A stretch of DNA of 64,000 nucleotides, from the NCBI RefSeq assembly GCF_027063845.1, contig NZ_JAMOQU010000089.1:7604-71603 (forward strand). The letters run 5' to 3'. The position numbers and the translations under genes are program-made. How positions within the stretch are numbered: the stretch's first letter is position 1; every line of letters begins with the position of its first letter. Shown piece by piece: positions 4,191 through 64,000 of this stretch. Under the pieces are notes generated by a model that was not told where the DNA came from, searched no databases, and saw only the letters and a program-made list of their open reading frames with translations. Source of the stretch: Thermococcus sp. (GTDB lineage Archaea > Methanobacteriota_B > Thermococci > Thermococcales > Thermococcaceae).

Positions 4191-4366
4191 TGACGACCCC
4201 TTAACTGGGGAGGATGATGGACATTTAAGCGTTGTCCCGGGTGACTTTTTCCATGTCGGATGATACGGCATGACCTGGAGGGCTCCAAAAACTATAACCC
4301 TAATAACTCGAAAAAGTTTTAACCACGCGTCACCTCACAAGCCTCGCATACACTTGGGGTGATAAA

Positions 4367-5746: not shown

Positions 5747-7093
5747 ATGGGAAAGCACTACCTTCCCAACCTCGCTCAGAGGGATGAAATGCTGAAGGAA
5801 ATCGGCTTCAGCTCAATCGAAGAGCTCTTCTCGGACGTCCCCGAGGGAATGGTGAAGGAGTTCAACCTCCCAGAGGGAAAGAGCGAGTACGAGGTCTTCC
5901 TCGAGCTCAACGAGGTCCTTTCGAAGAACAAAACCGTCCTCGAGATGCCGAGCTTCCTCGGCGCTGGAACCTACTTCCATTACGTCCCAGCTCACGTTAA
6001 GTACCTCATCGAGAGGAGCGAGTTCCTGACCGCTTACACCCCCTATCAGCCCGAGATAAGCCAAGGTATGCTCCAGGCTCTCTTTGAGTACCAGAGCATG
6101 ATGGCCGAACTCTACGGCCTGCCGGTCGTCAACTCCTCGATGTACGACTGGGGAACGGCAATAGCTGAGGCCGCTTTGATGAGCGTCAGACTTCACAGGG
6201 GCAAAAGGAAGCGCTTCGTGATTCCAAAGGCGATAAGCCCTGAGAAAAAGGCCGTCATCGAGACATACACGCGCGGTGCAAACCTTGAGATAGTCGAGGT
6301 TCCCTGGGACGAGAGGGGCCAGCTCGATATCGAGAAGCTCAAGGAATCCGTTGAAAATTCGGCTGGTGTTTACGTCGAGATGGCCAACTTCTTCGGCCTG
6401 GTTGAGGAGAACGTTAGAGAGATAGGCGAGATAGCCAAGGAAGCAGGAGCTTACTTCGTCGTTGGGGCCGACCCGACGATGCTCGGAATCTTCGAGGCGC
6501 CGGGCGAACTCGGGGCGGACATAGCGGTCGGTGAGGCTTCATACCTCGGCAACCCGATGAACTTCGGCGGGCCGAGGGCAGGAGTTTTCGCGGTCAGGAA
6601 CGACAAGAAGCTCATCCGCCAGATGCCGGGCAGGATAATCGGAATGACGAGAGATGCTGAAGGAAAGAGGGCCTTTGTCATGACCCTCCAGACGAGGGAA
6701 CAGCACATAAGACGCGCCAAAGCTACCTCAAACATCTGTTCGAACGAAGCACTCGTTGCCGTTGCTTCCGCCATACATCTGGCCAGTCTCGGGCCGAAGG
6801 GCTTGAGGGAGCTCGGCGAGGTCATACTCAAGAACACCGCCTACCTGAAGAAGAGGCTGGGCGAAGTGGCCGAGATTCCCTTCGAGGGCCTCTACTTCAA
6901 GGATGTTCCTGCTCGCTTCGAAAAGCCATACAGCGAGATACACGAGGCCCTTCTCGCGAGGGGAATACACGGCGGCTACTACATAGGTAAGCACTTCCCG
7001 GAGCTCGGCGAGACCGCGCTCTTCTCGGCAACTGAGACGACGAGGAAGGAATGGGTTGAGGTCCTAATCGAGGCCCTCAAGGAGGTGGCCTGA
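5747..7093 (+). CDS. gcvPA: glycine dehydrogenase (decarboxylating) subunit 1
   Basis: Length and sequence are typical of split P-protein subunit 1. It is followed immediately by subunit 2. ATG 5747 follows GGTGAT. Confidence 0.93.
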
Positions 7094-8602
7094 ATGTTCC
7101 GCCAGGCTAAGTGGGACGAACCCCTAATCTTCGAGCTTTCCCGCGAGGGACGGGTCGGTTATACGTTGCCGAAGCCGATTGAGGACGTTGATGTCGAAAT
7201 TCCCGAGAAGCTCAGAAGGAAGAGCAAACTCGGCCTTCCCGAGCTGAGCGAGCCGGAGATAGTGAAGCACTACACCCGCTTGAGCGAGATGAACTATGGA
7301 GTAGATTCTGGCATCTATCCCCTCGGCTCGTGCACCATGAAGTACAACCCCAAGATAAACGAGGAGATTGCCGGTCACCCCGGGGTCGCCTACGTCCACC
7401 CGTATCAGGACGAGAGAACCGTCCAGGGCGCGCTTAGAATAATGTGGGAGCTGGAGCAGTGGCTCAAGGAGATAACCGGCATGGACCGCTTCACGCTCCA
7501 ACCAGCTGCCGGGGCAAACGGCGAATTCACCGGCGTTTCCATAATAAGGGCTTACCACCTCGACAACGAGGAACCCCAGAGGGACGAGATGCTGGTGGCC
7601 GATTCCGCCCATGGAACGAACCCGGCCAGCGCGGCGATGGCCGGCTTCAAGGTCATCGAGATTCCCTCGACGGAAGAAGGGACGATGGACCTGGAGGCCC
7701 TTGAGAACGCGGTCGGCGAGAGGACGGCTGGATTAATGCTCACAAACCCCAACACCCTCGGTATCTTTGAGGACGAGATATTGGAGATAGCGAAGATAGT
7801 GCATAAGGCCGGCGGGCTTCTATACTACGATGGGGCGAACCTCAACGCCGTCCTCGGAAAGGTTAGACCAGGCGACATGGGCTTCGACGTTGTTCACCTC
7901 AACCTGCACAAGACGTTCTCAACACCGCACGGTGGAGGCGGGCCGGGAAGCGGGCCGGTCGGAGTTAAGGACTTCCTCAAGGACTACCTGCCCGTTCCGC
8001 TGGTGAGCTACGACGAGGAGAACGACCGCTACTACCTCGACTACAACGTGCCCAAGAGCATAGGGAAGGTGAAGGAGCTCTACGGCAACTTCGCGGTCAT
8101 GGTGAGGGCTCTCGTTTACCTCAAGGTCATGGGCAAGGAGGGACTGAAGAACGCGAGCGAGATAGCTGTTCTCAACGCCAACTACCTGACGAGAAAGCTT
8201 TTGGGAACGAAGGGCTACGAGTTGCCAGGCAAAAAGCTTAGAAAGCACGAAACCGTCTTTTCAGCCGAACCGATGAAGAAGGAAACTGGCGTGACGGCAA
8301 TGGACGTGGCGAAGAGACTTCTCGACTTTGGACTGCACGCGCCCACCGTTTACTTCCCGCTGATTGTGCACGAGGCTCTGATGATTGAACCGACAGAAAC
8401 CGTCAGCAGGGAAGAGATTGACGCATACGTCGAGGCGCTGAAGAGGATAAGCGAGGAAGCCTACAACAACCCCGAGGTCGTTAAGGGCGCTCCCCACAAC
8501 ACAGCAGTTAGGCGCGTGGACGACGTTCTTGCCGCCAAAAAGCCCGTCCTCAGCTGGAGGATGTACCTCGAGCTGAAGGAGAAGGGCGAAGTAGACTACT
8601 AA
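7094..8602 (+). CDS. gcvPB: glycine dehydrogenase (decarboxylating) subunit 2
   Basis: The start abuts the gcvPA stop. The PLP-lysine region [16 protein letters not shown] is typical of P-protein subunit 2. Confidence 0.95.
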
Positions 8603-8647
8603 CTCCAATTTTTCTATATCATTTTACGGACCCTTAAAAAGAAACCC

Positions 8648-8670
8648 GGTCTAAAATAACTTTTTAGACC
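8648..8670. terminator. hairpin with T-run downstream of gcvPB
   Basis: GGTCTAAAA-taact-TTTTAGACC is an inverted repeat containing T5. A further T5 lies at 8609-8613. Confidence 0.3.
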
Positions 8671-8697
8671 TCCTTGAAATTGCGGTAGAATAAAGAA

Positions 8698-8990
8698 TCA
8701 CGAACCTTGGTCAAACTTCGCGCTCAGCCTTTGAGAAAGGCTGGCGAAAAGAGCGCCCTTCTCACCAAAGGGCAAAAACAGTCGTGCATTTGCCGAGTGC
8801 AAGTTTGGACAGGGTTTAACACCAAACAAGGCTTTTCAAGCAGTTCCAACTTTGTTATTAGCGTCCGAAGGACGCCGTTTAAAGGATGGAACACTCACCA
8901 AAGAGCACGTGGATAAGAAACCCACTTGGAAATTAATACTTCAAAAAAGCACTTAATCTTCCGCCAGCGCTTGCGAAGCAAGGGCTGTAA
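8698..8990 (-). repeat. tRNA-3'-anchored hairpin-rich repeat unit (copy A)
   Basis: A unit of about 290 bp that ends exactly at the CCA end of tRNA-Thr(GGU). Long identical runs are shared with 38886-39185. Hairpins: CAGCCTTTgagaAAGGCTG, GCGTCCgaaGGACGC, and a GCTTGCG.AAGC palindrome. Confidence 0.8.
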
Positions 8991-9067
8991 TGGAGCCCCG
9001 GGCGGGGTTTGAACCCGCGACCTGCCGCTTACCAAGCGGCCGCTCCACCAGGCTGAGCCACCGGGGC
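8991..9067 (-). tRNA. tRNA-Thr (anticodon GGU), CCA encoded
   Basis: Cloverleaf read by hand: acceptor GCCCCGG/CCGGGGC, anticodon loop TTGGTAA, T-arm GCGGG-TTCAAAC-CCCGC, discriminator U plus CCA. TATA CTTTATAAATTT lies about 35 nt upstream at 9097-9110. Confidence 0.9.
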
Positions 9068-19218: not shown

Positions 19219-20241
19219 ATGGCCCACGTAGCCGAGTGGAAGAAGAAGGAAGTTGAGGAACTCACCAAGATTATCAAGAGCCACCCAGTGATTGCCCTCG
19301 TTGACGTGGCCGGTGTCCCCGCTTACCCGCTCAGCAAGATGCGTGACAAGCTCCGCGGGAAGGCCCTTCTCAGGGTCAGCAGGAACACCCTCATCGAACT
19401 GGCCATAAAGAGGGCCGCCCAGGAGCTCAACAAGCCTGACCTCGAAAAGCTCGCCGACTACATCGAGGGAGGAGCGGCGATACTCGCCACCGAGATGAAC
19501 CCCTTCAAGCTCTACAAGCTCCTCGAGGAGAGCAAGACCCCTGCCCCGGCCAAGCCAGGAGCGGTCGTTCCCAAGGACGTCGTCATTCCAGCCGGACCGA
19601 CCTCGATTCCACCGGGCCCGCTCGTCGGTGAGATGCAGGCCCTTGGAATCCCGGCGAGGATTGAGAAGGGTAAGGTTAGCATTCAGAAGGACTACACCGT
19701 CCTCAAGGCGGGAGAGGTTATAACCGAACAGCTCGCGAGAATCCTCAACGCCCTCGGTATCGAGCCCCTCGAGGTCGGTCTCAACCTGCTCGCCGCTTAC
19801 GAAGACGGCATCGTCTACACTCCTGATGTCCTCGCGATAGACGAGCAGGAGTACATCAACATGCTCCAGCAGGCCTACATGCACGCATTCAACCTGTCAG
19901 TTAACACCGCCTATCCGACCAAGCAGACCATCGAAGCCATCATCCAGAAGGCCTACCTTGGTGCCAAGAACGTTGCAGTCGAAGCTGGCTACATCACGCC
20001 TGAGACCATCGAGGACATCTTTGGCAGGGCCCTTCGTGCCGTCCTGCTCATAGCGCAGAACCTGCCCGAGGAGTTGCTTGACGAGAAGACCAAAGAGCTT
20101 TTAAACGCTCAGGCCCAAGTGGCCGTTGCCGCGGCTCCTCAGCCAACCGAGGAGAAGGTTGAGGAGGCCGAGGAAGAAGAGGAAGAAGAGGAGGCATCCG
20201 AGGAGGATGCGCTCGCCGGACTGGGCGCCCTCTTCGGCTGA
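19219..20241 (+). CDS. rplP0: 50S ribosomal protein L10/P0 (uL10)
   Basis: P0 N-domain, with acidic tail [21 protein letters not shown] shared with P1. Confidence 0.95.
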
Positions 20242-20300
20242 ATTACTTTCCCTCGCACACGTGTGAATAAAGGAATGAAGATGATTGGAGGTGTGAAAAG

Positions 20301-20621
20301 ATGGAGTACGTGTATGCCGCTCTGCTGCTCCACGCCGCTGGTAAGGAGATAAACGAGGAGAACCTCAAGGCCGTCCTTGAGGCCGCTGGAGTCACTCCGG
20401 ATGAGGCCAGGATAAAGGCTCTCGTTGCAGCGCTCGAGGGCGTCAACATCGACGAGGTCATCGAGAAGGCCGCCATGCCTGTCGCCGCTCCGGTCGCTGT
20501 CGCCGCCGCTCCGGCTCCCGCCGAGGGCGGTGCCGAGCAGGCTCAGGAGGAGGAAGAGGAGGAAGAGGAAGAGGTCAGCGAGGAGGAGGCCCTCGCTGGT
20601 CTCGGCGCCCTCTTCGGCTGA
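20301..20621 (+). CDS. rpl12: 50S ribosomal stalk protein P1 (L12)
   Basis: [22 protein letters not shown]..., Ala/Pro hinge, and C-terminal [12 protein letters not shown]. Confidence 0.95.
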
Positions 20622-20639
20622 ACTCCTCTTCTCTTTTGT

Positions 20640-20659
20640 CCGCCCTCGGGCGGGCTTTT
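20640..20659. terminator. GC hairpin plus T4 between convergent rpl12 and a membrane-protein gene
   Basis: CCGCCCtcGGGCGG followed by CTTTTC. Confidence 0.35.
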
Positions 20660-20670
20660 CAAAACTTTTC

Positions 20671-21099
20671 TCAGCGCTTCCTGAAGACGACAACCGTCTT
20701 CCACGTCCTTCTGTATCCCTCTGGGTTGAGCCTTCTCCTCAGCAACTCCATAAAGACCACGTAAGTTACAAAGAAGATGACGGAAACGACAACCTTTTCG
20801 ACCGTGTTCCTGAGGCCATTGAGTGCGTTTATCCAGGCTATGCCGAGGGCTCCAAGCATCAGGAATCCCGCGGTCTCGTACAGGGCAACGTTTCTCGGAA
20901 GTCTCTCAAACTTTCTGAGGGTCACTCCGACAACTAAAGTAATTAGGCCGATGAGCCCTAAAACCACAGTTGTTGTATCCACGGCACTTGCTCCATATCT
21001 CTGCGCCAGCAGGGGGTAAAGGGGAAGCGCCGGTGCAAGTGCAAAAAAGCCTGCAATGGTGACCCCACTCACGATGAGCACTTTTGTGCTTCTTCTCAT
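20671..21099 (-). CDS. hypothetical integral membrane protein (about 4 TM)
   Basis: 142-aa hydrophobic ORF. No family recognised. Confidence 0.55.
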   Translation of the reverse strand: MRRSTKVLIVSGVTIAGFFALAPALPLYPLLAQRYGASAVDTTTVVLGLIGLITLVVGVTLRKFERLPRNVALYETAGFLMLGALGIAWINALNGLRNTVEKVVVSVIFFVTYVVFMELLRRRLNPEGYRRTWKTVVVFRKR

Positions 21100-21190
21100 C
21101 CCTCTTCCCCAATTAACATTGGCCGAGGTAACCTAAAAGGTTTTCGTAAACCGCAAGGTTTATGTTTAGCCCATCGGAACCATCAGGGGT

Positions 21191-21268
21191 GGGCCGGTGG
21201 CCTAGCCTGGACGGGGCGTCGGCCTTCGGAGCCGAAGGTCGCGGGTTCGAATCCCGCCCGGCCCGCCA
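21191..21268 (+). tRNA. tRNA-Arg (anticodon UCG), CCA encoded
   Basis: Acceptor GGGCCGG/CCGGCCC, anticodon stem-loop TCGGC-CTTCGGA-GCCGA, T-arm GCGGG-TTCGAAT-CCCGC. Confidence 0.9.
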
Positions 21269-22085
21269 TTGAAACTTTGCCTTCGCAAAGTTTCATCAAA
21301 GTTTGTAGCTCTTTCTGGAAGGATATATTTCAAGAGATTTTCCATTTAATTGGCCGTATTGGGTAAAAGAACTTTTTAAATTGCCCCTTTTGGAAGGGTT
21401 TACCTTTAAATCGATGCCCGAAGGGCGTCAAGAAGAGAGTAAACCCCTTTGTAGGGTGCTGTTTTTGTGTTCTCCATTTGAAAAGAGCAATTTCGTGAGT
21501 AAAATCGATTTTATGGGGGTCTTTGGCGAGGAGCTACTAACTTTTGGTGAAGCTTTTGAAAAAAGCTTCCTTCGCAAGCGCTGGCGGAAGAGTAAGTGCT
21601 TTTCTAAGGATTAGCAAGTTTTGAGATGGGTTTACTCAACTTGCCCCTTGATTAGTGTTTCACTCTAAGAAGGCGTCCTTCGGACGCCGATGATAAGTTG
21701 AAACTACGCAGGAGCTTCATTTAGTTTTTAAACCCCTAGTCAATGTTGCACTTTTGGTGCACGACTGGCCTTTTGCTCGTTAGAGAGAAGGGCCTCATAT
21801 CGCCAGCCTTTCCCAAAGGCTGTTGCAAAGTTTCATCAAAGCCGGCATGCCTTTTGAATGGTTCGTTCTCAGGGGTTTACTTCCAAACTCGCCAGTTTTA
21901 AGCGTGTTTCCTCCATTAGCACCCGAAGGGCGCTGTTTAAAACTAAACACTTTCCTCCACACGCCATCATGAGCGTAAACCCCGAATCCATCGACTGTTT
22001 GATAACGCATGCAACTTTTCTTTTACCCTTTCGGACAGTTAAACCATTTTGGTCAAGCTTTGCGCAAGCAAAGCTTGCTGGCCTC
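21269..22085 (+). repeat. array of about three diverged tRNA-anchored hairpin-rich repeat units
   Basis: It starts at the base after the CCA of tRNA-Arg. Approximate units: 21269-21560, 21560-21845, 21845-22085. The middle unit aligns along its length with the reverse complement of 8698-8990 and 38886-39185. Motifs: GCAAAGTTTCATCAAAG (21286, 21825), CGCCAGCCTTTCCCAAAGGCTG (21801), TTCGCAAGCGCTGGCGGAAG (21571), GGCGTCCttcGGACGCC (21672). Confidence 0.75.
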
Positions 22086-22185
22086 AGGAGTGGTGGCCCT
22101 CCGCACCCCTCGGTGCCGGGCCAACCGCTCATCATCGGCCGGATTATTTTTATACCACCGCCTTAAATCCCCAGCGGTGGTTGGT

Positions 22186-37685: not shown

Positions 37686-37761
37686 GCCGCCGTAGCTTAG
37701 TCGGTAGAGCGCCGGACTGTTAATCCGGCGGTCCCCGGTTCGAATCCGGGCGGCGGCGCCA
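37686..37761 (+). tRNA. tRNA-Asn (anticodon GUU), CCA encoded
   Basis: Acceptor GCCGCCG/CGGCGGC, anticodon loop CTGTTAA, T-arm CCCGG-TTCGAAT-CCGGG. Confidence 0.9.
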
Positions 37762-37766
37762 TCAGT

Positions 37767-37844
37767 GGGCCCGTAGCTCAGCCTGGTCAGAGCGCGCGGC
37801 TCATAACCGCGTGGTCGGGGGTTCAAAGCCCCCCGGGCCCACCA
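37767..37844 (+). tRNA. tRNA with CAU anticodon (elongator Met or Ile2), CCA encoded
   Basis: Acceptor GGGCCCG/CGGGCCC, anticodon loop CTCATAA. G1:C72 and the absence of a GGG/CCC anticodon stem argue against an initiator. Met and agmatidine-modified Ile2 cannot be separated by eye. Confidence 0.85.
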
Positions 37845-38663
37845 TAGCAAACTTTTCTGGGGAAAAGTTTGACCAAAAGTGTTTGACTATTCAAAGTGTG
37901 GAGTTTATAGTTCGTGCACGTCAAGGAGTGTCTCTTGTTGGGAGTTTCTTTTTGACTTGCTATTCAGAGAGCGTTTCCTCCCCGAAAGGCGTCCGAAGGA
38001 CGCCGATGATAAGTTGAAACTATTACAAGGCTTGTTTTTAATGCTAAACTCGCGTTAAGTTCTTCAATTTGAAAGTGCACAACTGAGGTTTGCTTGTTTG
38101 GTAGACGAGCGCTTTTCGCCAGCCTTTCCCAAAGGCTGTGGGCAAAGTTTCATCAAAGTTCGTGATTCCTTTTGAAAAAGCCTATTCTTTGAGTGGATTT
38201 CTTTTTGAGTTGCTCTTTTGATGAAATGAATTCCTTTGAAAGCGCCTTTTACAGGGGGTTCAAGTCTTTGCGCTCCTTCGGAGCGCGGTTCAAGTAGAAC
38301 CCGCGTGAAAGAGGGTGTATCTTTAAAAAATTCAATCTTCAAGGGTCAGTTTAGAGTTTAAAATCCCTTTGTAGAGGAGCCTCAAGGAAGAATCACAAGC
38401 TTTTGGTGAAGCTTTTTCCAAAAGCTTCCTGCGCAAGCGCTGGCGGAAGATTAAGCACTTTTTAGAAGTGTAAGTTTCAGAAGGAGCTTCTATTATATCT
38501 CGCCTCCTATTGCGAGGGTTTTTCTCTCTTTGAAGGCACCCGACAGGCGCATTTTTGAATGAAACACTAATCAAAGGAGCGAATAGGGCCCTGCTTGAAA
38601 ACAGGGACACGCCCAAGAAAGGCACATCATTTCCGCCAGCGCTTGCGCAAGCAGGGGCTGATG
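37845..38663. repeat. array of tRNA-anchored hairpin-rich repeat units between convergent tRNA-Met and tRNA-Pro
   Basis: Forward units lie at about 37845-38160 and about 38160-38450. A truncated reverse unit at about 38490-38663 ends at the CCA of tRNA-Pro. Motifs: GGCGTCCgaaGGACGCC (37988), CGCCAGCCTTTCCCAAAGGCTG (38118), GCAAAGTTTCATCAAAG (38142), CTGCGCAAGCGCTGGCGGAAG forward (38429) and its complement (38631). Confidence 0.75.
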
Positions 38664-38741
38664 TGGTGGGGCCGCCGGGATTTGAACCCGGGTCACGGGC
38701 TCCCAAAGCCCGCAGGATGGGCCAAACTACCCTACGGCCCC
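38664..38741 (-). tRNA. tRNA-Pro (anticodon UGG), CCA encoded
   Basis: Acceptor GGGGCCG/CGGCCCC, anticodon stem-loop CGGGC-TTTGGGA-GCCCG, T-arm CCGGG-TTCAAAT-CCCGG. TATA AAAATTTAATAAGG lies about 30 nt upstream (38768-38781). Confidence 0.9.
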
Positions 38742-38885
38742 CTGCGGTAGGTGCATCACGGGTTGCCTTATTAAATTTTTCGCCGCTGAACTGGATGATG
38801 ATTTCACGTCAACAAAGCTAAAAGGAAAGAATGAGAGAGCTTCGAAGGCTGATATAGTGCATTCCAAATAAGGACAAATAAGGAG

Positions 38886-39185
38886 TCGCGAACTTTGATG
38901 AAACTTTGCCCACAGCTTTTGAGAAAGGCTGGCGAAATGAGTACCCTTCTCACCGAAGAGCAAAGGAGTCAATCGTGCACTGTTAGAGTGCAAGTTTAGA
39001 AAGGGTTTAATATCAAACAGGGTTTTTCAAGCAGTTCCAACTTTGTTATTAGCGTCCAAAGGACGCCGTTTAAAGAATGGAACACTCACCAAAGAGCACG
39101 TGAACAAGAAACCCACTTGAAAATGATAAATACTTCAAAAAAGCACTTAATCTTCCGCCAGCGCTTGCGCAAGCAAGGGCTGATG
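38886..39185 (-). repeat. tRNA-3'-anchored hairpin-rich repeat unit (copy D)
   Basis: A unit of about 300 bp ending at the CCA of tRNA-Leu. It is the closest relative of copy A (8698-8990). Confidence 0.8.
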
Positions 39186-39273
39186 TGGTGCGGGGGCGGG
39201 GATTTGAACCCCGGAACCCCTACGGGAGTGGATCTTGAGTCCACCGCCTTTGACCAGGCTCGGCAACCCCCGC
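39186..39273 (-). tRNA. tRNA-Leu (anticodon CAA), long variable arm, CCA encoded
   Basis: Acceptor GCGGGGG/CCCCCGC, anticodon loop CTCAAGA, extra arm CCCGTAGGGG, T-arm CCGGG-TTCAAAT-CCCCG. Confidence 0.9.
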
Positions 39274-40460: not shown

Positions 40461-42416
40461 TCACTTGAGCCTTATGGCGTCGAGGTTGTTGGGCGCGCGC
40501 GTTGATATGCCGAACTTCCTGTGTATGCTGGAGCTGAGGTCGAGGCACTTGTGGGCCTCGCCGTGGACGGTGATTATCCTTTCCGGCCTCGGCCTGACGC
40601 GGGCGACGTAGCTTATAAGTTCTCTCCTGTCCGCGTGGCCGGAGAAGCCGTCTATCGTGTGGACCTCCATGTTGACCTGAACGACCTCCGTCCTGCCGTC
40701 CTCGCCGATGAGCGGTATCTCGCGCAAACCTCTCTGAACCTGCCTTCCGAGCGTGCCCTCGGCCTGGTAGCTGACGAAGATGATGCTGTTCTTCGGGTCG
40801 GGGGCGAGCTGTTTGAAGTATTCGACGCTCGGTCCACCGACGAGCATGCCCGAGGTGGCTATGATTATCGCAGGCTCCCCGCTGTCTATGATATCCTGCC
40901 TCTCGCGCGAGTTGGCGACGGGTTTGAATATCGGGTTGAGGAACGGGTTGTAGCCCTCGTGGAATATCTGCTCGCGGAGGCTCTTGCTGAGGTACTCCGG
41001 GTAAGCTGTGTGGATTGCGGTAGCTTCCCAAATCATTCCGTCGAGGTAAATCGGAACTTCTATTCCCCCGACGCGCGCGTACTCCTCGAGAACCATCATT
41101 ATCTCCTGGGCCCTTCCAACGGCCATCGCCGGGATGAGCACCTTTCCACCGCGCTTGATGGTTTCTCTTATAACCTCTATGAGCTTCTTCTCGGCCTCCT
41201 CACGAGGCATCTGATAGTCGTTGCTTCCGCCATAGGTGGACTCCATGACCAGGGTCTCAAGGCGCGGGAACCTGCTCACGGCGGGCTCGAAGAGCCTGGT
41301 CGGAATGAACTTAAAGTCTCCGGTTACGGCTATGTTGTGGAGTCCATTGCCTATGTGGAGGTGGACAATGGCTGAACCGAGTATGTGACCAGCGTTGTGG
41401 AGGGTCAACCTTATGTCGGGGGCTATGTCCCTGACCTCGCCATAGTCGAGGGTTATGGTGTGCTTTATAACCTCCTTTATGTCCCTTGGTCTGTACAGGG
41501 GCTCGACGCCGTTCATGTGCTGAATCTCAATGAAGTCCTGCTGGAGGAGGGTCATCAGGTCCCTCGTCGGGGGAGTGGTGTAAATCGGCCCGTCGAAGAG
41601 CTTGTAGCGGAAGAGGTAAGGTAGCATTCCGCTGTGGTCGAGGTGGGCGTGGGTTATGATTATCGCGTCAAGAAGGCCCTCGTCAAGGACGTAGCGGAAT
41701 TCTGGAGCGTCGAAGTGCGGAAACGCTTTGAGCGGGTCTTTCATCGCGGCGATGTTCACACCGAAGTCAACAAGAACGTAGCTCTCATCGGTCTGAACCA
41801 AGAGAGCGCTCCTTCCAACCTCGCGGAAGCCACCCAAACCGGTAATCCTAATCCACCTGCTCTTGTACTCGGACTTGCGGTAGATGTTCCTGCCGACCTG
41901 CCTGAGGAACTTCCTCCTGTCCTTGCTCTCGGTCTGGAGAATCTGCCTTATCGAGTAAATCGTCTGGCTCTGGAGCGGAGGAGTCCTGACGACTCTCGGC
42001 GCCCAGTGAACCTTCTGCGTGATTAGGCGAAGCGTCTCGCCGTTTTTCCCGATGACGAGGCCGGGCTTCTTGGCCTCTATGAGAACTTCGCCGACTGAGG
42101 GGTCGAAGCTGATGTTGGTTATCTCGGCCTCCTTCGGGACGAGCTCCTTAATCATCTCCTCTGCCTTCTCGGGCGGAATCAGGATGTCCGGGTCAGGACG
42201 GACGCTTATCCTCTTCTTCAGAACCTTCGCGAGGTTCCTGATGAGGTCACCGTCCTTCATTATCGCCTCTGGGTTCTTGGTGTAGATGACGAGCTCCGGC
42301 CCCTCGAACTCGACGTCGGTTATCCTCGCGTTCGGCGGAACCATCTGGGCTATGACCTCGCGAATCTCCTTGAGTATCTCGTCAACGTAGGTTTCCCTCC
42401 GAATCAACGCCACCAC
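40461..42416 (-). CDS. fttA: aCPSF1/FttA: KH-domain beta-CASP metallo-beta-lactamase ribonuclease (transcription termination factor)
   Basis: Two N-terminal KH-like domains (VIGKNGETL), HAHLDHSG MBL motif, beta-CASP C-terminus. Conserved pairing with psmB. Confidence 0.93.
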   Translation of the reverse strand: MVALIRRETYVDEILKEIREVIAQMVPPNARITDVEFEGPELVIYTKNPEAIMKDGDLIRNLAKVLKKRISVRPDPDILIPPEKAEEMIKELVPKEAEITNISFDPSVGEVLIEAKKPGLVIGKNGETLRLITQKVHWAPRVVRTPPLQSQTIYSIRQILQTESKDRRKFLRQVGRNIYRKSEYKSRWIRITGLGGFREVGRSALLVQTDESYVLVDFGVNIAAMKDPLKAFPHFDAPEFRYVLDEGLLDAIIITHAHLDHSGMLPYLFRYKLFDGPIYTTPPTRDLMTLLQQDFIEIQHMNGVEPLYRPRDIKEVIKHTITLDYGEVRDIAPDIRLTLHNAGHILGSAIVHLHIGNGLHNIAVTGDFKFIPTRLFEPAVSRFPRLETLVMESTYGGSNDYQMPREEAEKKLIEVIRETIKRGGKVLIPAMAVGRAQEIMMVLEEYARVGGIEVPIYLDGMIWEATAIHTAYPEYLSKSLREQIFHEGYNPFLNPIFKPVANSRERQDIIDSGEPAIIIATSGMLVGGPSVEYFKQLAPDPKNSIIFVSYQAEGTLGRQVQRGLREIPLIGEDGRTEVVQVNMEVHTIDGFSGHADRRELISYVARVRPRPERIITVHGEAHKCLDLSSSIHRKFGISTRAPNNLDAIRLK

Positions 42417-45623: not shown

Positions 45624-46220
45624 TCATATCACCTCAGGCTTTCGGTAATCTGCGATATCCCCTACGACCTTTGCATATATAAACCTTTCGGGAAAGGAGG
45701 AAGGAGAGGGCTTAGTTTGCAACAAAAAGTTAGCATCTCAAATTTTCGAAGAAATAAAAAGCGCTCCCGAAATTTTTAGCCAAAAAGAGGGATGTACATC
45801 CAAGATTTTATGAACATTGGTGAACATTGAGGTGCAACGGTGAAGGAAAGAATAGAAACCCTCAGCGAGAAGTCGGTCATCATCCCGTCAGCTCACTCTC
45901 GTTCCAATCATCGGGCGACTCCTTCTTGGGGGTTCTGATTAAAAACTCTTTTGTGAACAATACTTCATGCTTTGTGTCGTCGCATTGCCAGTCCATTTCA
46001 AAAGGTTATTGTCATAATGACTCCAAACTCCGCCACTGAATAGGCATATCTGAAAAAATGACAAAAAAGGATTTCAGGTTATTTTACGACAAAGTAAATC
46101 GTCTTTCGTCGAAATAAAGGCCCAAAAAGCTTTTTAAACAATGATGTCCTTTATACGTAGTGCCCCGTTAGTGGGCATTCGATCCCAATAAAATACAACC
46201 CTGATTGGAGGTGGTTAAAA

Positions 46221-62134: not shown

Positions 62135-63140
62135 CGAAGACCACCCCGTGTATCTCCCTCAAAGCCGGCACGAGCTCCTCCCTCTCGACCGTTATTGAGA
62201 AGTATCCGTTCCCCTTCACTCCCTTCCAGTCGGGGAGCTCTTCAACACCTACAATTGATATCCTCGCCCTCTCTCCCTCGACCCGGTGGACAATTATCGG
62301 CCAGTCGTCGCCGAAGTCTGACACAAGGGTTCCAAGGCGCCAGTCCTCGGTTCTGCCGAGTATCAGCGGAATACTTCCGAGGGGTTCGATGGTTCTTGGG
62401 TGGAGTGCCTTCATCCCGAGCTTCGCCGCCAAAAGGGCCCTCTCGCGCGAGAGGAAGTGTATCAGCCTGGCTTCCGGAACGAGCCTCGGGTCGGCGGTGT
62501 ATATCCCCTTCACGTCGCTCATTATGAGAACGCCCTTCGCATCGAGCATCGCCCCCAAAGCCGAGGCTGTGTAATCGCTACCGCCCCTGCCGAGGGTTGC
62601 CGTTTTTCCGTTGAGGTTTCCTATGAAGCCTGTAACTACTGGAACCGCTTTTTCTGCCAGCTCTCCGAGTTTCCGAACGCGGGGCAGGCTGGCTGAAAAG
62701 TCTATTTCCGCGTTCCCAAAGCTCCCGCGAAGGGTTAGGATTTCCCTCGCGTCCACGGGAATCGCCGGGATTCCTTCGTTTTCAAGAGCTTTTGCGAACA
62801 GCACTGCGGAGAGCCTCTCCCCGAAGGAGAGGATGTAGTCCCTCCACTCAGGGTCGTAACGGCGCCTTGCAACGGCTTTTTCGAGCTCGCTGAGAAGGGG
62901 CTCTATATCCGCACCGAGCCTGTTCGCTATCTTGTAGTGCTCGAGTGCTATGCTCTCAAAGGTTCTCCAGTCTGGCCACTCCGAGAGCTTCACAAGCTTC
63001 TCCGTGACACCCCTGAGGGCAGAAACGACGACAACTACCCTGCTTCCCTCGAGGAGGTAGTCAACTAACTTCAGTGCGCTCCAGAACGAGCCCTTCACCG
63101 AGCTTCCTCCGAACTTGACGACGGAGAGTTTCTCGACCAC
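62085..63140 (-). CDS. aspartate kinase (short form, single ACT-like tail)
   Basis: VVKFGGSSV and TLGRGGSDYTASALGA motifs. GTG 63140 lies about 35 nt downstream of TATA TTCATTAAAAGG. The 3' end overlaps thrB by 50 nt. Confidence 0.8.
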   Translation of the reverse strand: MVEKLSVVKFGGSSVKGSFWSALKLVDYLLEGSRVVVVVSALRGVTEKLVKLSEWPDWRTFESIALEHYKIANRLGADIEPLLSELEKAVARRRYDPEWRDYILSFGERLSAVLFAKALENEGIPAIPVDAREILTLRGSFGNAEIDFSASLPRVRKLGELAEKAVPVVTGFIGNLNGKTATLGRGGSDYTASALGAMLDAKGVLIMSDVKGIYTADPRLVPEARLIHFLSRERALLAAKLGMKALHPRTIEPLGSIPLILGRTEDWRLGTLVSDFGDDWPIIVHRVEGERARISIVGVEELPDWKGVKGNGYFSITVEREELVPALREIHGVVFDEGSRSRYHSKLWARV

Positions 63141-63260: not shown

Positions 63261-64000
63261 TTATATCACCACTTGAACAGTTGACAGGGCCCTTGAGAAC
63301 ATTATCCTTCTTCCTATGACCTCCCAGTGAATCGCGTTCAAAGCGCTCCCGAGACGGGAAAGCGGAACGCGAACTGACACCCAAGGAATTCCCTTTTCCT
63401 CGTGCCTCTCGAAGGGAAAGCTCCCGAGCGAGTCAACTCCCACAACGCTGACTATTCCATCGCTTCCCTCGACACGGTAAGTCACTATGGGTATCCCGGA
63501 GCTCTCATAACCAACGACCGTGCCGATGTGCCAGTCTCTCGTCCTGCCGAGGTGTATTGGCCCCGCCACTTCAGCCGCCTTGGGATGTAGCACCTTCATT
63601 CCGAGCCTCGCGGCCACGTAGGCCTCCCCAAAGGAAACAAAAGGTATGAGCCTCGCCCCTAATACTTTCCTTGGGTCCGCGGTGTAAATCCCCTCAACAT
63701 CACTCATTATGATGACACCGCTCGCCCCGATTAGACTTCCGAGGGCCGAGGCCGTGTAATCGCTACCACCCCTGCCGAGGGTCGTTCTGAAACCGCTGTA
63801 ACCGCCAACGAAGCCAGGAACTACCGGCACAAGGCCTTCCTCAAGGGCTTCCTCGACCGGCTTCACGGTTTTCCTGCTCGCCCTGAGGTCTATTTCCGCG
63901 TTACCGAAACGCCCGTCCGTCATCAGGATTTCCCACGGCTCGAAAAGCACGGCTGGAATGCCCCTCCTCCTCAGGGCCTCGGTGAATATTATCCCTGAGA
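63261..64000 (-). CDS. second aspartate kinase paralog (5' end outside the window)
   Basis: The frame is open to the window edge. TLGRGGSDYTASALGS, IIMSDVEGIYTADPR and LHPKA align residue-for-residue with the downstream kinase. Confidence 0.75.
   Translation of the reverse strand, partial: SGIIFTEALRRRGIPAVLFEPWEILMTDGRFGNAEIDLRASRKTVKPVEEALEEGLVPVVPGFVGGYSGFRTTLGRGGSDYTASALGSLIGASGVIIMSDVEGIYTADPRKVLGARLIPFVSFGEAYVAARLGMKVLHPKAAEVAGPIHLGRTRDWHIGTVVGYESSGIPIVTYRVEGSDGIVSVVGVDSLGSFPFERHEEKGIPWVSVRVPLSRLGSALNAIHWEVIGRRIMFSRALSTVQVVI

Follow-up and report, generated by a model that had tools for sequence, protein, structure and literature searches.

A structured, polar repeat family anchored to the 3' ends of stable-RNA genes in Thermococcus

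Two convergent tRNA genes in the 64,000-nucleotide stretch of Thermococcus DNA that we analysed (hereafter the window) are separated by 819 non-coding bases, at positions 37845-38663, which hold three repeat units with short hairpins between them. The locus raises the question of what such repeats are and how they are tied to the RNA genes at whose ends they begin. A preliminary description had seen here a head-to-head array that points away from the two tRNAs, with copies that follow the orientation of the neighbouring tRNA, and had proposed a mechanistic link to tRNA transcription, processing or recognition.

The array between tRNA-Met and tRNA-Pro

Both tRNA genes proposed as borders of the array were confirmed, tRNA-Met(CAT) at 37767-37844 on the forward strand and tRNA-Pro(TGG) at 38664-38741 on the reverse strand (ARAGORN and Rfam), the latter anchoring the right side. 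The left side is anchored by the 3' end of a transcription unit (37686-37844) that comprises tRNA-Met and tRNA-Asn(GTT) (37686-37761, forward strand, also found by ARAGORN), the Rfam tRNA matches being 76 bits for tRNA-Asn and 66.8 bits for tRNA-Met. The GC content of the region between the convergent genes falls to 42-46%.

The array begins 3 nt past the CCA end of tRNA-Met with an anchor hairpin, H, of the M2 type, CAAACTTTTC-TGGG-GAAAAGTTTG (37848-37871, forward strand), which is supported by the sequence itself, by hairpin scans and by covariation across the family, and after which comes ACCAAAAG. This hairpin opens unit U1 (37848-38141 with the hairpin, body 37872-38141, forward strand; blastn, nhmmer, folding). 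The 3' two-thirds of U1 are X-type, with 70-77% identity to other X copies by blastn, and we regard this X-like unit as chimeric because its 5' ~100 nt differ from the X-type remainder. The nhmmer match spans 37922-38171 on the forward strand (154 bits) and the fold has a z-score of -2.5. A central GC hairpin, GGCGTCC-GAA-GGACGCC (37988-38004, forward strand), and a distal hairpin detected by the hairpin scan, CAGCCTTT-CCC-AAAGGCTG (38120-38138, forward strand), are both found within the unit.

Unit U2 (38142-38407, forward strand, or to 38428 with its junction hairpin) opens with the M2 module GCAAAGTTTCATCAAAG and is Y-type according to its fold and blastn copies, which lie behind tRNA-Trp (locus L157) and tRNA-Leu (L058 and L136) at 80-84% identity. 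It forms a single long imperfect hairpin (-105.7 kcal/mol, z -4.5) with the apex GCGCTCC-TTC-GGAGCGC at 38270-38286. The two forward units of the preliminary description are hence both present, but they are an X-like and a Y-like unit, not two copies of one unit. The junction hairpin GAAGCTTTT-TCC-AAAAGCTTC (38408-38428, forward strand) is followed by a forward M1 module, CTGCGCAAGCGCTGGCGGAAG (38429-38449, forward strand).

The third unit, U3 (38449-38660, body 38449-38630, reverse strand), is short and X-like and reads best from the tRNA-Pro side, with nhmmer scores of 110 bits on the reverse strand (38661-38388) versus 83 bits on the forward strand, as expected for the reverse unit that had been placed behind tRNA-Pro. 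A reverse M1 module and the tRNA-Pro-proximal hairpin, CAGCCCCTGCTTGCGCAAGCGCTG, occupy 38631-38660 on the reverse strand, and the hairpin itself (38637-38660) sits 3 nt past the CCA end of tRNA-Pro. The module is indeed found forward at 38429 and as its complement at 38631. The M1 arms (38425-38448 and 38631-38654) are 24 nt long, 92% complementary and 182 nt apart, so that the large inverted repeat reported with about 180 bp between its arms does exist, but it represents the terminal arms of U3, which is closed by a 22-bp helix of these two arms (z -5.3). All three borders, U1 at 37848-38141, U2 at 38142-38428 and U3 at 38449-38660 in reverse, lie near those originally given, and the units are in fact delimited by the short hairpins at 37848-37871, 38120-38138 and 38408-38428.

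Anchoring of the family to stable-RNA 3' ends

The units of the family are non-coding, measure ~210-310 bp and fall into three sub-types, X, Y, and Z, U1 and U2 being sub-types of one superfamily. X runs from module M1 (CGCAAGCGCTGGCGGAAG) to module M2, Y runs from M2 to M1, and Z is a third type. Typically one to three units, and up to four, follow a single RNA gene. Each array starts with a 9-11 bp hairpin of M2 or M1 type, and the same hairpins part successive units; these short perfect hairpins form one family, with GAAACTTTGC, CAAACTTTTC, GAAGCTTTT, CAAGCTTTGC or CAGCCTTT paired to its complement. The M2 type reads [G/C]AAACTT[T/C][G/T]C, loop, complement, then ATCAAAG, and the M1 type reads CAGCCCTTGC-loop-GCAAGCGCTG, then GCGGAAG. 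These hairpins are 19-26 nt long, extragenic, and located 0-9 nt after RNA-gene 3' ends as well as between units, with a linker after the CCA that varies (TTA, TA, T, TAG, CAT or none). Each unit also contains a central GC-rich hairpin of 6-7 bp, in the fully compensated variants GGCGTCC, GCGCTCC, GACGCCC, and GGCGCCC.

Within the 64 kb of the window, blastn and profile searches confine the family to four stretches, 8600-8990, 21269-22081, 37845-38663, and 38742-39185. Units are present in 4 of the 4 non-coding gaps that a tRNA 3' end faces and in 0 of the 9 other gaps of at least 150 nt, in agreement with the earlier view that this is not random intergenic drift. We counted 5 copies of the M1 17-mer core CGCAAGCGCTGGCGGAA in the window, where 0.02 would be expected (0 of 100 shuffles), and all five are behind a tRNA and in its orientation, as had been noted.

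A full X unit (38877-39185, reverse strand, 242 bits) is located directly behind tRNA-Leu(CAA) (39186-39273) and is followed by an M2 stub on the side of the tRNA-Pro promoter. It is 86% identical by blastn to the copy at 8689-8987, which belongs to another full X unit (8689-8990, reverse strand, 249 bits) directly behind tRNA-Thr(GGT) (8991-9067), from which a truncated M2-type stub extends to ~8603. A second convergent array (21191-22139, forward strand; ARAGORN, Rfam, blastn, profile search, hairpin scan) leads from tRNA-Arg(TCG) (21191-21268, forward strand) to the C/D sRNA sR47 (22082-22139, reverse strand). There we observe a hairpin H (21270-21295) with a Y unit next to it, a junction hairpin (21549-21569), an X unit (21562-21842), a hairpin (21804-21822) followed by a Z unit, and, on the sR47 side, a further hairpin H (22054-22077), 4 nt from the sR47 3' end. 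The window encodes Pyrococcus-type C/D box sRNAs, sR47 and sR58, in addition to seven tRNAs. It is 99.8-100% identical to contigs from hydrothermal-vent metagenomes, and its RpiA shares 90% identity with the Thermococcus peptonophilus protein, which identifies the source as a Thermococcus that has not been cultured.

Beyond the window, a 21-mer from the M1 module gave one match in a genome-collection scan, a Thermococcus MAG in which tRNA-Ile is immediately followed by an X unit that converges with tRNA-Pro. A metagenome scan with an M2 17-mer returned at least 120 loci; among the matches listed, 25 loci were Thermococcus-like with units, and the array was at a tRNA in 21 of these 25, a sample drawn blind to context and tallied from our own map reading. 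Via RpiA homologues we recovered further, syntenic loci from T. peptonophilus, T. profundus, and several MAGs. The family is found in ~30 other Thermococcus loci, including those of the two named species.

At ~33 tRNA transcription-unit ends, drawn from the window, T. peptonophilus, T. profundus, a MAG, and vent-metagenome contigs, the hairpin begins 0-4 nt (up to 9) after the CCA. More than 15 tRNA species are represented among these ends, some of them intron-containing tRNAs that ARAGORN initially missed. The same hairpins are also found behind the C/D sRNAs sR47 in the window and sR36 in locus L174, behind a 5S-tRNA-Asp operon (L082), and, in one protein-gene case, after the stop codon of cbf5 (L079). 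A solitary unit in L127 has no adjoining RNA gene. The proposed link is thus to RNA-gene 3' ends and is not specific to tRNA. In this Thermococcus, the hairpin and co-directional units are found behind almost all tRNA and small-RNA genes that have free space on that side. A subset of Thermococcus species has the family, which is anchored there to stable-RNA 3' ends, namely those of tRNAs, C/D sRNAs, and a 5S-tRNA operon. Units are missing behind some tRNAs and sR58 in the same loci.

Hairpin constraint, polarity and copying within genomes

Covariation was analysed in 25 tRNA-proximal copies of the M2 type, picked by tRNA position and by the downstream AYYAAR motif, blind to pairing. In these, 96.8% of stem cells are paired and three stem positions are changed on both sides (CG/GC 11:11, UA/CG 16:8, GC/UA 19:5), counts that are not independent events because the copies are related. 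None of 500 shuffles reached the observed covariation score, and pairing drops to 26-54% if the partner is shifted by 1-3 columns. In an unbiased alignment of 17 X units, the internal hairpins are 84% paired and 7 pairs are changed on both sides. The stem of the proximal hairpin is maintained via compensatory changes.

The preliminary description had also suggested folding individual units and looking for covariation. The units do fold with energies below shuffled controls (z -2.5 to -7.2) and the short stems covary, but the 17 X units share almost no long-range fold, as RNAalifold gives -1.4 kcal/mol and 10 pairs. On this ground we rejected a single large conserved RNA fold, long hairpins being present only in some units, such as U2. 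Inverted arms of M2 and M1 are seen in U2 and U3, respectively, and X units have M1 at one end and a weak M1-like complement with a different hairpin at the other. At junctions, the hairpin arms match those of the neighbouring unit, not the other end of their own unit. Compared to its own reverse complement, a unit shows a mean identity of 0.61, versus 0.565 for shuffles; palindromy is not general.

The orientation of copies, first noticed with a short module, is partly automatic for such modules, because units bear them as inverted terminal arms, but it is not automatic for the asymmetric X units. In 14 of 14 single-anchored arrays, strong X-type matches run the same way as the anchoring gene, second and third units included, and the only ambiguous strong X match is in a convergent array. 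Y-type copies are mostly co-oriented, although Y and Z are partly palindromic and their orientation is less clear; one Z-type unit (L122) and several weakly scored units are apparently anti-oriented. Scoring all units with an X-seeded profile gave 32 co-oriented, 14 anti-oriented, and 27 unscored units, figures that are unreliable for weak or palindromic units, and the polarity counts rest on strong X-profile matches. Orientable units run head-to-tail along the anchoring gene, so that two convergent genes give two meeting sets. A replication-linked strand bias was rejected as the cause of orientation, given the opposed sets at convergent tRNAs 800 bp apart.

The strand co-directional with the RNA gene is rich in T-runs, with 174 runs of T4 or longer versus 81 runs of A4 or longer and a bias in 33 of 41 units, which are not independent because homologous copies inherit the bias. 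A T- or C/T-rich tract lies ~18 nt past the proximal hairpin. Among 35 flanks, about half show a run of T4 or longer at +43 to +46 after the CCA, about a third have T5 or longer within 90 nt, and others have C/T-rich tracts; many display merely T3-T4 or C/T-rich tracts at the place expected for a terminator. Internal junctions have the order A-tract, ~27-bp palindrome, T-tract.

Copies are more similar within a genome than at the same gene across species, paralogous flanks being 86-92% identical versus 62-76% for orthologous flanks. The first 160 nt of the tRNA-Leu(CAA) flank in the window are 92% identical to the tRNA-Thr flank, and the Pro and Arg flanks of T. peptonophilus share 86%; across species, tRNA-Leu flanks share 74-76% and tRNA-Arg flanks 62%. 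The same unit types behind different tRNAs in different genomes reach 80-86% identity, about level with coding DNA between these genomes (78-83%). The tRNA-Leu(CAA) gene beside rpiA is followed by an X unit in the window, L136, and L184, by a Y unit in L057 and L058, by a degenerate remnant in strain CX2, and by no unit in the close relatives L181, L183, and strain 21S7. As units are absent behind these orthologous tRNAs and behind some tRNAs and sR58 in loci that carry the family, any function they have must be dispensable.

Collinearity of the window with T. peptonophilus or L057 breaks at 39184/39186, 8984/8991, and 20632-22081, and these synteny breaks coincide exactly with tRNA 3' ends or arrays. 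They agree with the tRNA-linked inversions known in Thermococcales, whose breakpoints are in oppositely oriented pairs of tRNA genes and which were ascribed to a plasmid integrase acting on tRNA genes (Cossu et al. 2017, PMC5495485). Frequent recombination at the arrays is further suggested by half hairpins cut at the loop (L080, L056), tRNA remnants before arrays, and chimeric units. The family is copied or homogenised within genomes, dispensable at any single tRNA, and located at synteny breakpoints.

Candidate explanations and known systems

The repeat system is real: it is structured and polar, propagates within genomes and has its anchor at the 3' ends of stable RNAs. Several kinds of known element were considered for it. 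Searches of Rfam, at the gathering score and at E up to 5, returned tRNA, 5S rRNA, and C/D sRNA models only. A coding role was rejected, as Pfam matches none of the five longest ORFs in the region and the indels in the unit alignment are not multiples of three. The arrays are not CRISPR arrays, since the supposed spacers are mutually homologous, the hairpins differ within an array, and the period is 250-300 nt. A C/D box or K-turn formed by GATGATAAG...CTGA in X units was discarded too, the boxes not being conserved among copies.

The explanation that we prefer, tentatively and with somewhat less than even confidence, is that of a REP/BIME-like or MITE-like family that spreads within genomes, is anchored to stable-RNA 3' ends and probably provides, on read-through transcripts, a zone of termination and insulation made up of the hairpin and oligo-U. 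This zone would act in cis on an RNA polymerase reading out of the RNA gene. The hairpin at the mature end, the T-rich tract ~18 nt further on, and ~4 more T-runs per unit on the same strand might together form a polar zone of termination, 3'-end protection, and insulation, which would block antisense read-through into a convergent tRNA gene and be most useful between convergent tRNA genes. The family would be both self-propagating and locally useful, as bacterial REP/BIME are, and it may have spread by recombination, gene conversion, or a hypothetical hairpin-specific enzyme. Archaeal RNA polymerase terminates at oligo-T and does not need hairpins, which, together with the many flanks that have merely T3-T4, weakens the hairpin-terminator reading. 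To our knowledge, hairpin-dependent termination signals are not established in archaea. Arrays of up to four units also exceed what a terminator needs, and the greater similarity of paralogs than of orthologs, with a patchy distribution among lineages, fits a selfish element too.

Such an element, the main rival and a strong one although we hold it less likely, would be a purely selfish, non-autonomous MITE- or PATE-type mobile element that inserts in fixed orientation at stable-RNA 3' boundaries as 'safe havens'. Its enzyme would be encoded elsewhere, for instance a hairpin-recognising HUH/Y1 transposase or a site-specific recombinase; arrays would arise by repeated insertion at the gene-proximal hairpin or by unequal crossing-over, and any effect on transcripts would be incidental. 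Dispensability, the patchy distribution, and paralogs that are closer than orthologs are all consistent with this, as are identities near the level of coding DNA between units of the same type behind different tRNAs in different genomes. Some units, such as U2 and U3, have inverted terminal arms and fold back on themselves, but junction arms match their neighbours, which a selected hairpin explains better than terminal inverted repeats of the classic sort. Junctions to the anchoring gene are exact, and half hairpins in L080 and L056 are cut at the loop; the targets (tRNAs and C/D sRNAs) have, however, no common DNA sequence that an enzyme could read. The solitary unit of L127 is bounded by two complete hairpins whose loops are identical on one and the same strand, yet no direct repeat that would represent a target-site duplication surrounds it or the unit of L079. 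Related loci totalling ~350 kb revealed no transposase or recombinase with matching ends, and the best within-genome identity of 86-92% does not suggest a recent burst. Plasmids, phages, and viral contigs yielded no copy: blastn against PLSDB and INPHARED gave no plasmid or phage match, a negative that is weak for plasmids because PLSDB is probably poor in archaeal ones, the 48 matches of the M1 17-mer in viral contigs all fall in unrelated GC-rich phage genes, and the M2 and longer M1 seeds gave chance matches only, with no unit homology.

We think it improbable that a dedicated machinery reads the hairpin at the stable-RNA 3' boundary and adds units in a fixed polarity, or that the units yield a new class of tRNA-linked RNA. 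The former would resemble leader-proximal insertion in CRISPR or the tandem insertion of casposons at tRNA ends, with the RNA gene as the leader, the hairpin as the duplicated site, and the unit as the insert, and, if true, would represent a new kind of site-specific cassette system in archaea.

Quite improbable, in our opinion, is that the units are small structured RNA genes, either co-transcribed with the tRNA and processed at the hairpins or expressed from their own promoters. Co-orientation with the RNA gene, short conserved hairpins with covariation, and sequence blocks conserved across species would suit such genes, but several units have a T5-T6 run between the tRNA and the unit body, and inspection by eye reveals no TATA box at a fixed position in the aligned X units. 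Fold energies are under those of shuffles (z -2.5 to -7.2), yet RNAalifold finds -1.4 kcal/mol and 10 pairs for 17 X units, no Rfam family matches, and unit content varies through indels, chimeras, and truncations in addition to being dispensable.

That the units are relics of plasmids or viruses integrating into tRNA genes by an SSV-type integrase is largely refuted and very improbable: Thermococcales mobile elements do integrate into tRNA genes, which are inversion breakpoints (PMC5495485), and an X unit in L062 adjoins an archaeal phage-integrase ORF and a tRNA 3' fragment, but that unit is on the chromosomal side of the fragment, arrays begin past the CCA and not within the tRNA, the window arrays have no tRNA fragment in their interior or at their distal end and are not bounded by a duplicated tRNA 3' part, more than 15 tRNA species and C/D sRNAs are flanked by one family, and the units have no coding capacity, no protein genes, and no plasmid, phage, or viral-contig match.

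Among known systems, REP/BIME elements are the first to compare with the preferred family of termination- or insulation-associated repeats. Both are short imperfect palindromes shortly after genes, within transcription units or at their ends, with stems kept by compensatory change (three pairs changed on both sides, in 24 cells, in the Thermococcus hairpin); both form mosaic clusters with other conserved motifs and alternating arm orientation, and both are species-specific families homogenised within genomes. Roles reported for REP/BIME are those of terminators, 3'-end stabilisers, and recombination sites. In contrast, the host here is an archaeon, the hairpins bound units of 210-310 bp instead of 10-30 nt linkers, and the units are polar relative to the anchoring gene and almost only at stable-RNA genes, a few nt from the mature 3' end. 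No GTAG-type tetranucleotide was found at the hairpin foot, where linkers vary, and, unlike REP/BIME, which are mobilised by RAYT/TnpA-REP, the related Thermococcus loci show no RAYT-like gene, nor an insertion sequence with the same ends.

MITE and fold-back elements (ERIC, Correia, RUP) are likewise small, non-coding, and multi-copy, with inverted terminal arms and long hairpins as in U2 and U3, occur in transcribed intergenic DNA, and may carry terminators. The Thermococcus units differ in that no target-site duplication or parent insertion sequence was found for them, in that copies are stacked head-to-tail at RNA-gene 3' ends and not dispersed, and in that junction hairpins are common to neighbouring units. 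With IS200/IS605-derived PATEs and other HUH-mobilised elements they share hairpins of the same polarity at both ends on one strand (L127), strand-specific behaviour, and an apparent lack of classic terminal inverted repeats or target-site duplication; however, there is no conserved tetra- or pentanucleotide target beside the hairpin, no TnpA/TnpB partner was seen in the loci, and orientation follows the neighbouring gene, not replication, with opposed sets at convergent tRNAs.

Archaeal oligo-T and bacterial bidirectional terminators partly resemble the arrays in having a hairpin and then a T-rich tract on the sense strand, and bidirectional ones also in the internal junctions, with their A-tract, ~27-bp palindrome, and T-tract. 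Nevertheless, the T tract here is ~18 nt from a short hairpin, is often merely T3-T4, and the element is part of a large repeated unit, not a single site. The synteny breaks of the window at tRNA 3' ends or arrays recall the tRNA-linked rearrangement hot spots of PMC5495485, where no repeat family behind tRNA genes is described. Our full-text literature search found no description of this repeat system, only an aside in that paper on 'strictly conserved sequences immediately following' two tRNA-Gly genes. The Thermococcus family is not a member of the REP/BIME or MITE families, because neither a GTAG foot nor, around solitary units, a target-site duplication was found, and we file it as a variant of the REP/BIME-MITE kind of intergenic palindromic repeat.

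As T. peptonophilus (CP014750) and T. profundus (CP014862) are both cultured and fully sequenced, a direct test is possible. If the preferred reading is true, a whole hyperthermophilic archaeal clade flags where its tRNA and small-RNA genes end by means of a common, evolving module of hairpin and repeat, which would be a testable candidate for ending and insulating stable-RNA transcription units in archaea. Dispersed co-oriented repeats at tRNA genes would then offer a sequence basis for the frequent tRNA-linked inversions of Thermococcales, and REP/BIME-like biology would extend to archaea.

Family hairpins behind intron-containing tRNA and C/D box sRNA genes

The family hairpin, which closes off the non-coding repeat units, follows the tRNA-Trp(CCA) genes of two related loci (L157, 3207-3346; L105, 3980-4119) as it does other tRNAs. 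Each of these genes carries a 62-nt intron and was overlooked by ARAGORN run without its intron option. In L157, the intron region contains a box-C-like sequence, GATGATGG.

Two C/D box sRNAs are found on the minus strand of the window, sR47 (22082-22139, Rfam 42.8 bits) and sR58 (45860-45915, Rfam 77.9 bits). The 3' end of sR47 is followed, 4 nt on, by a family hairpin, and sR58 lacks one.

Rearrangements at tRNA genes and hairpins

The block comprising tRNA-Arg and its array (21191-22081 in the window; 19385-20319 in L056, from T. peptonophilus) is inverted in T. peptonophilus; it is flanked by the ribosomal P1/L12 gene on one side and by sR47/dcd on the other. A second pair of loci, L122 (780-955) and L127 (3240-3350), represents one flank in two strains in opposite orientation, with three units and an adjoining tRNA-Val in one strain versus one unit and no tRNA in the other.

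Truncated features occur at a set of three sites, namely a minus-strand tRNA in L080 (395-502), the minus-strand tRNA-Thr(GGT) of L056 (11651-11727), and L106 at about 4320-4333. Among them, we observe a 7-nt tRNA end (CGCACCA) remaining ahead of a hairpin, as well as half hairpins whose break point is precisely the loop; these features resemble scars that recombination or deletion would leave at the hairpins. In L062, a lone tRNA 3' fragment (7695-7730) is overlapped by an archaeal phage-integrase ORF (6868-7791; Pfam Phage_integr_3, 1e-53) and followed by an X unit. This site looks like an integrated element's edge, and the repeat lies to its chromosomal side.

Neighbouring genes, unrelated repeats and viral matches

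An aCPSF1/FttA-like gene with KH and beta-CASP domains (40461-42416, minus strand) lies 1.2 kb from the arrays in the window, adjoined by rpiA and a proteasome subunit gene. aCPSF1/FttA is a termination and cleavage factor of archaea; the proximity is probably coincidental.

Two 83-nt stretches (20165-20247 and 20545-20627) with 81% identity encode acidic C-terminal tails (EEEE...GLGALFG) of neighbouring ribosomal stalk protein genes. A 200-nt direct repeat with 70% identity (62398-62597 and 63583-63782, spaced 1185 nt) probably lies within paralogous genes.

The 17-mer core of module M1, used as search seed, also occurs within one conserved coding sequence of about 30 related phage contigs among the viral contigs L001-L048. 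We rejected these as family copies, the match being due to chance and having no relation to the Thermococcus repeats; it cautions against GC-rich short seeds.
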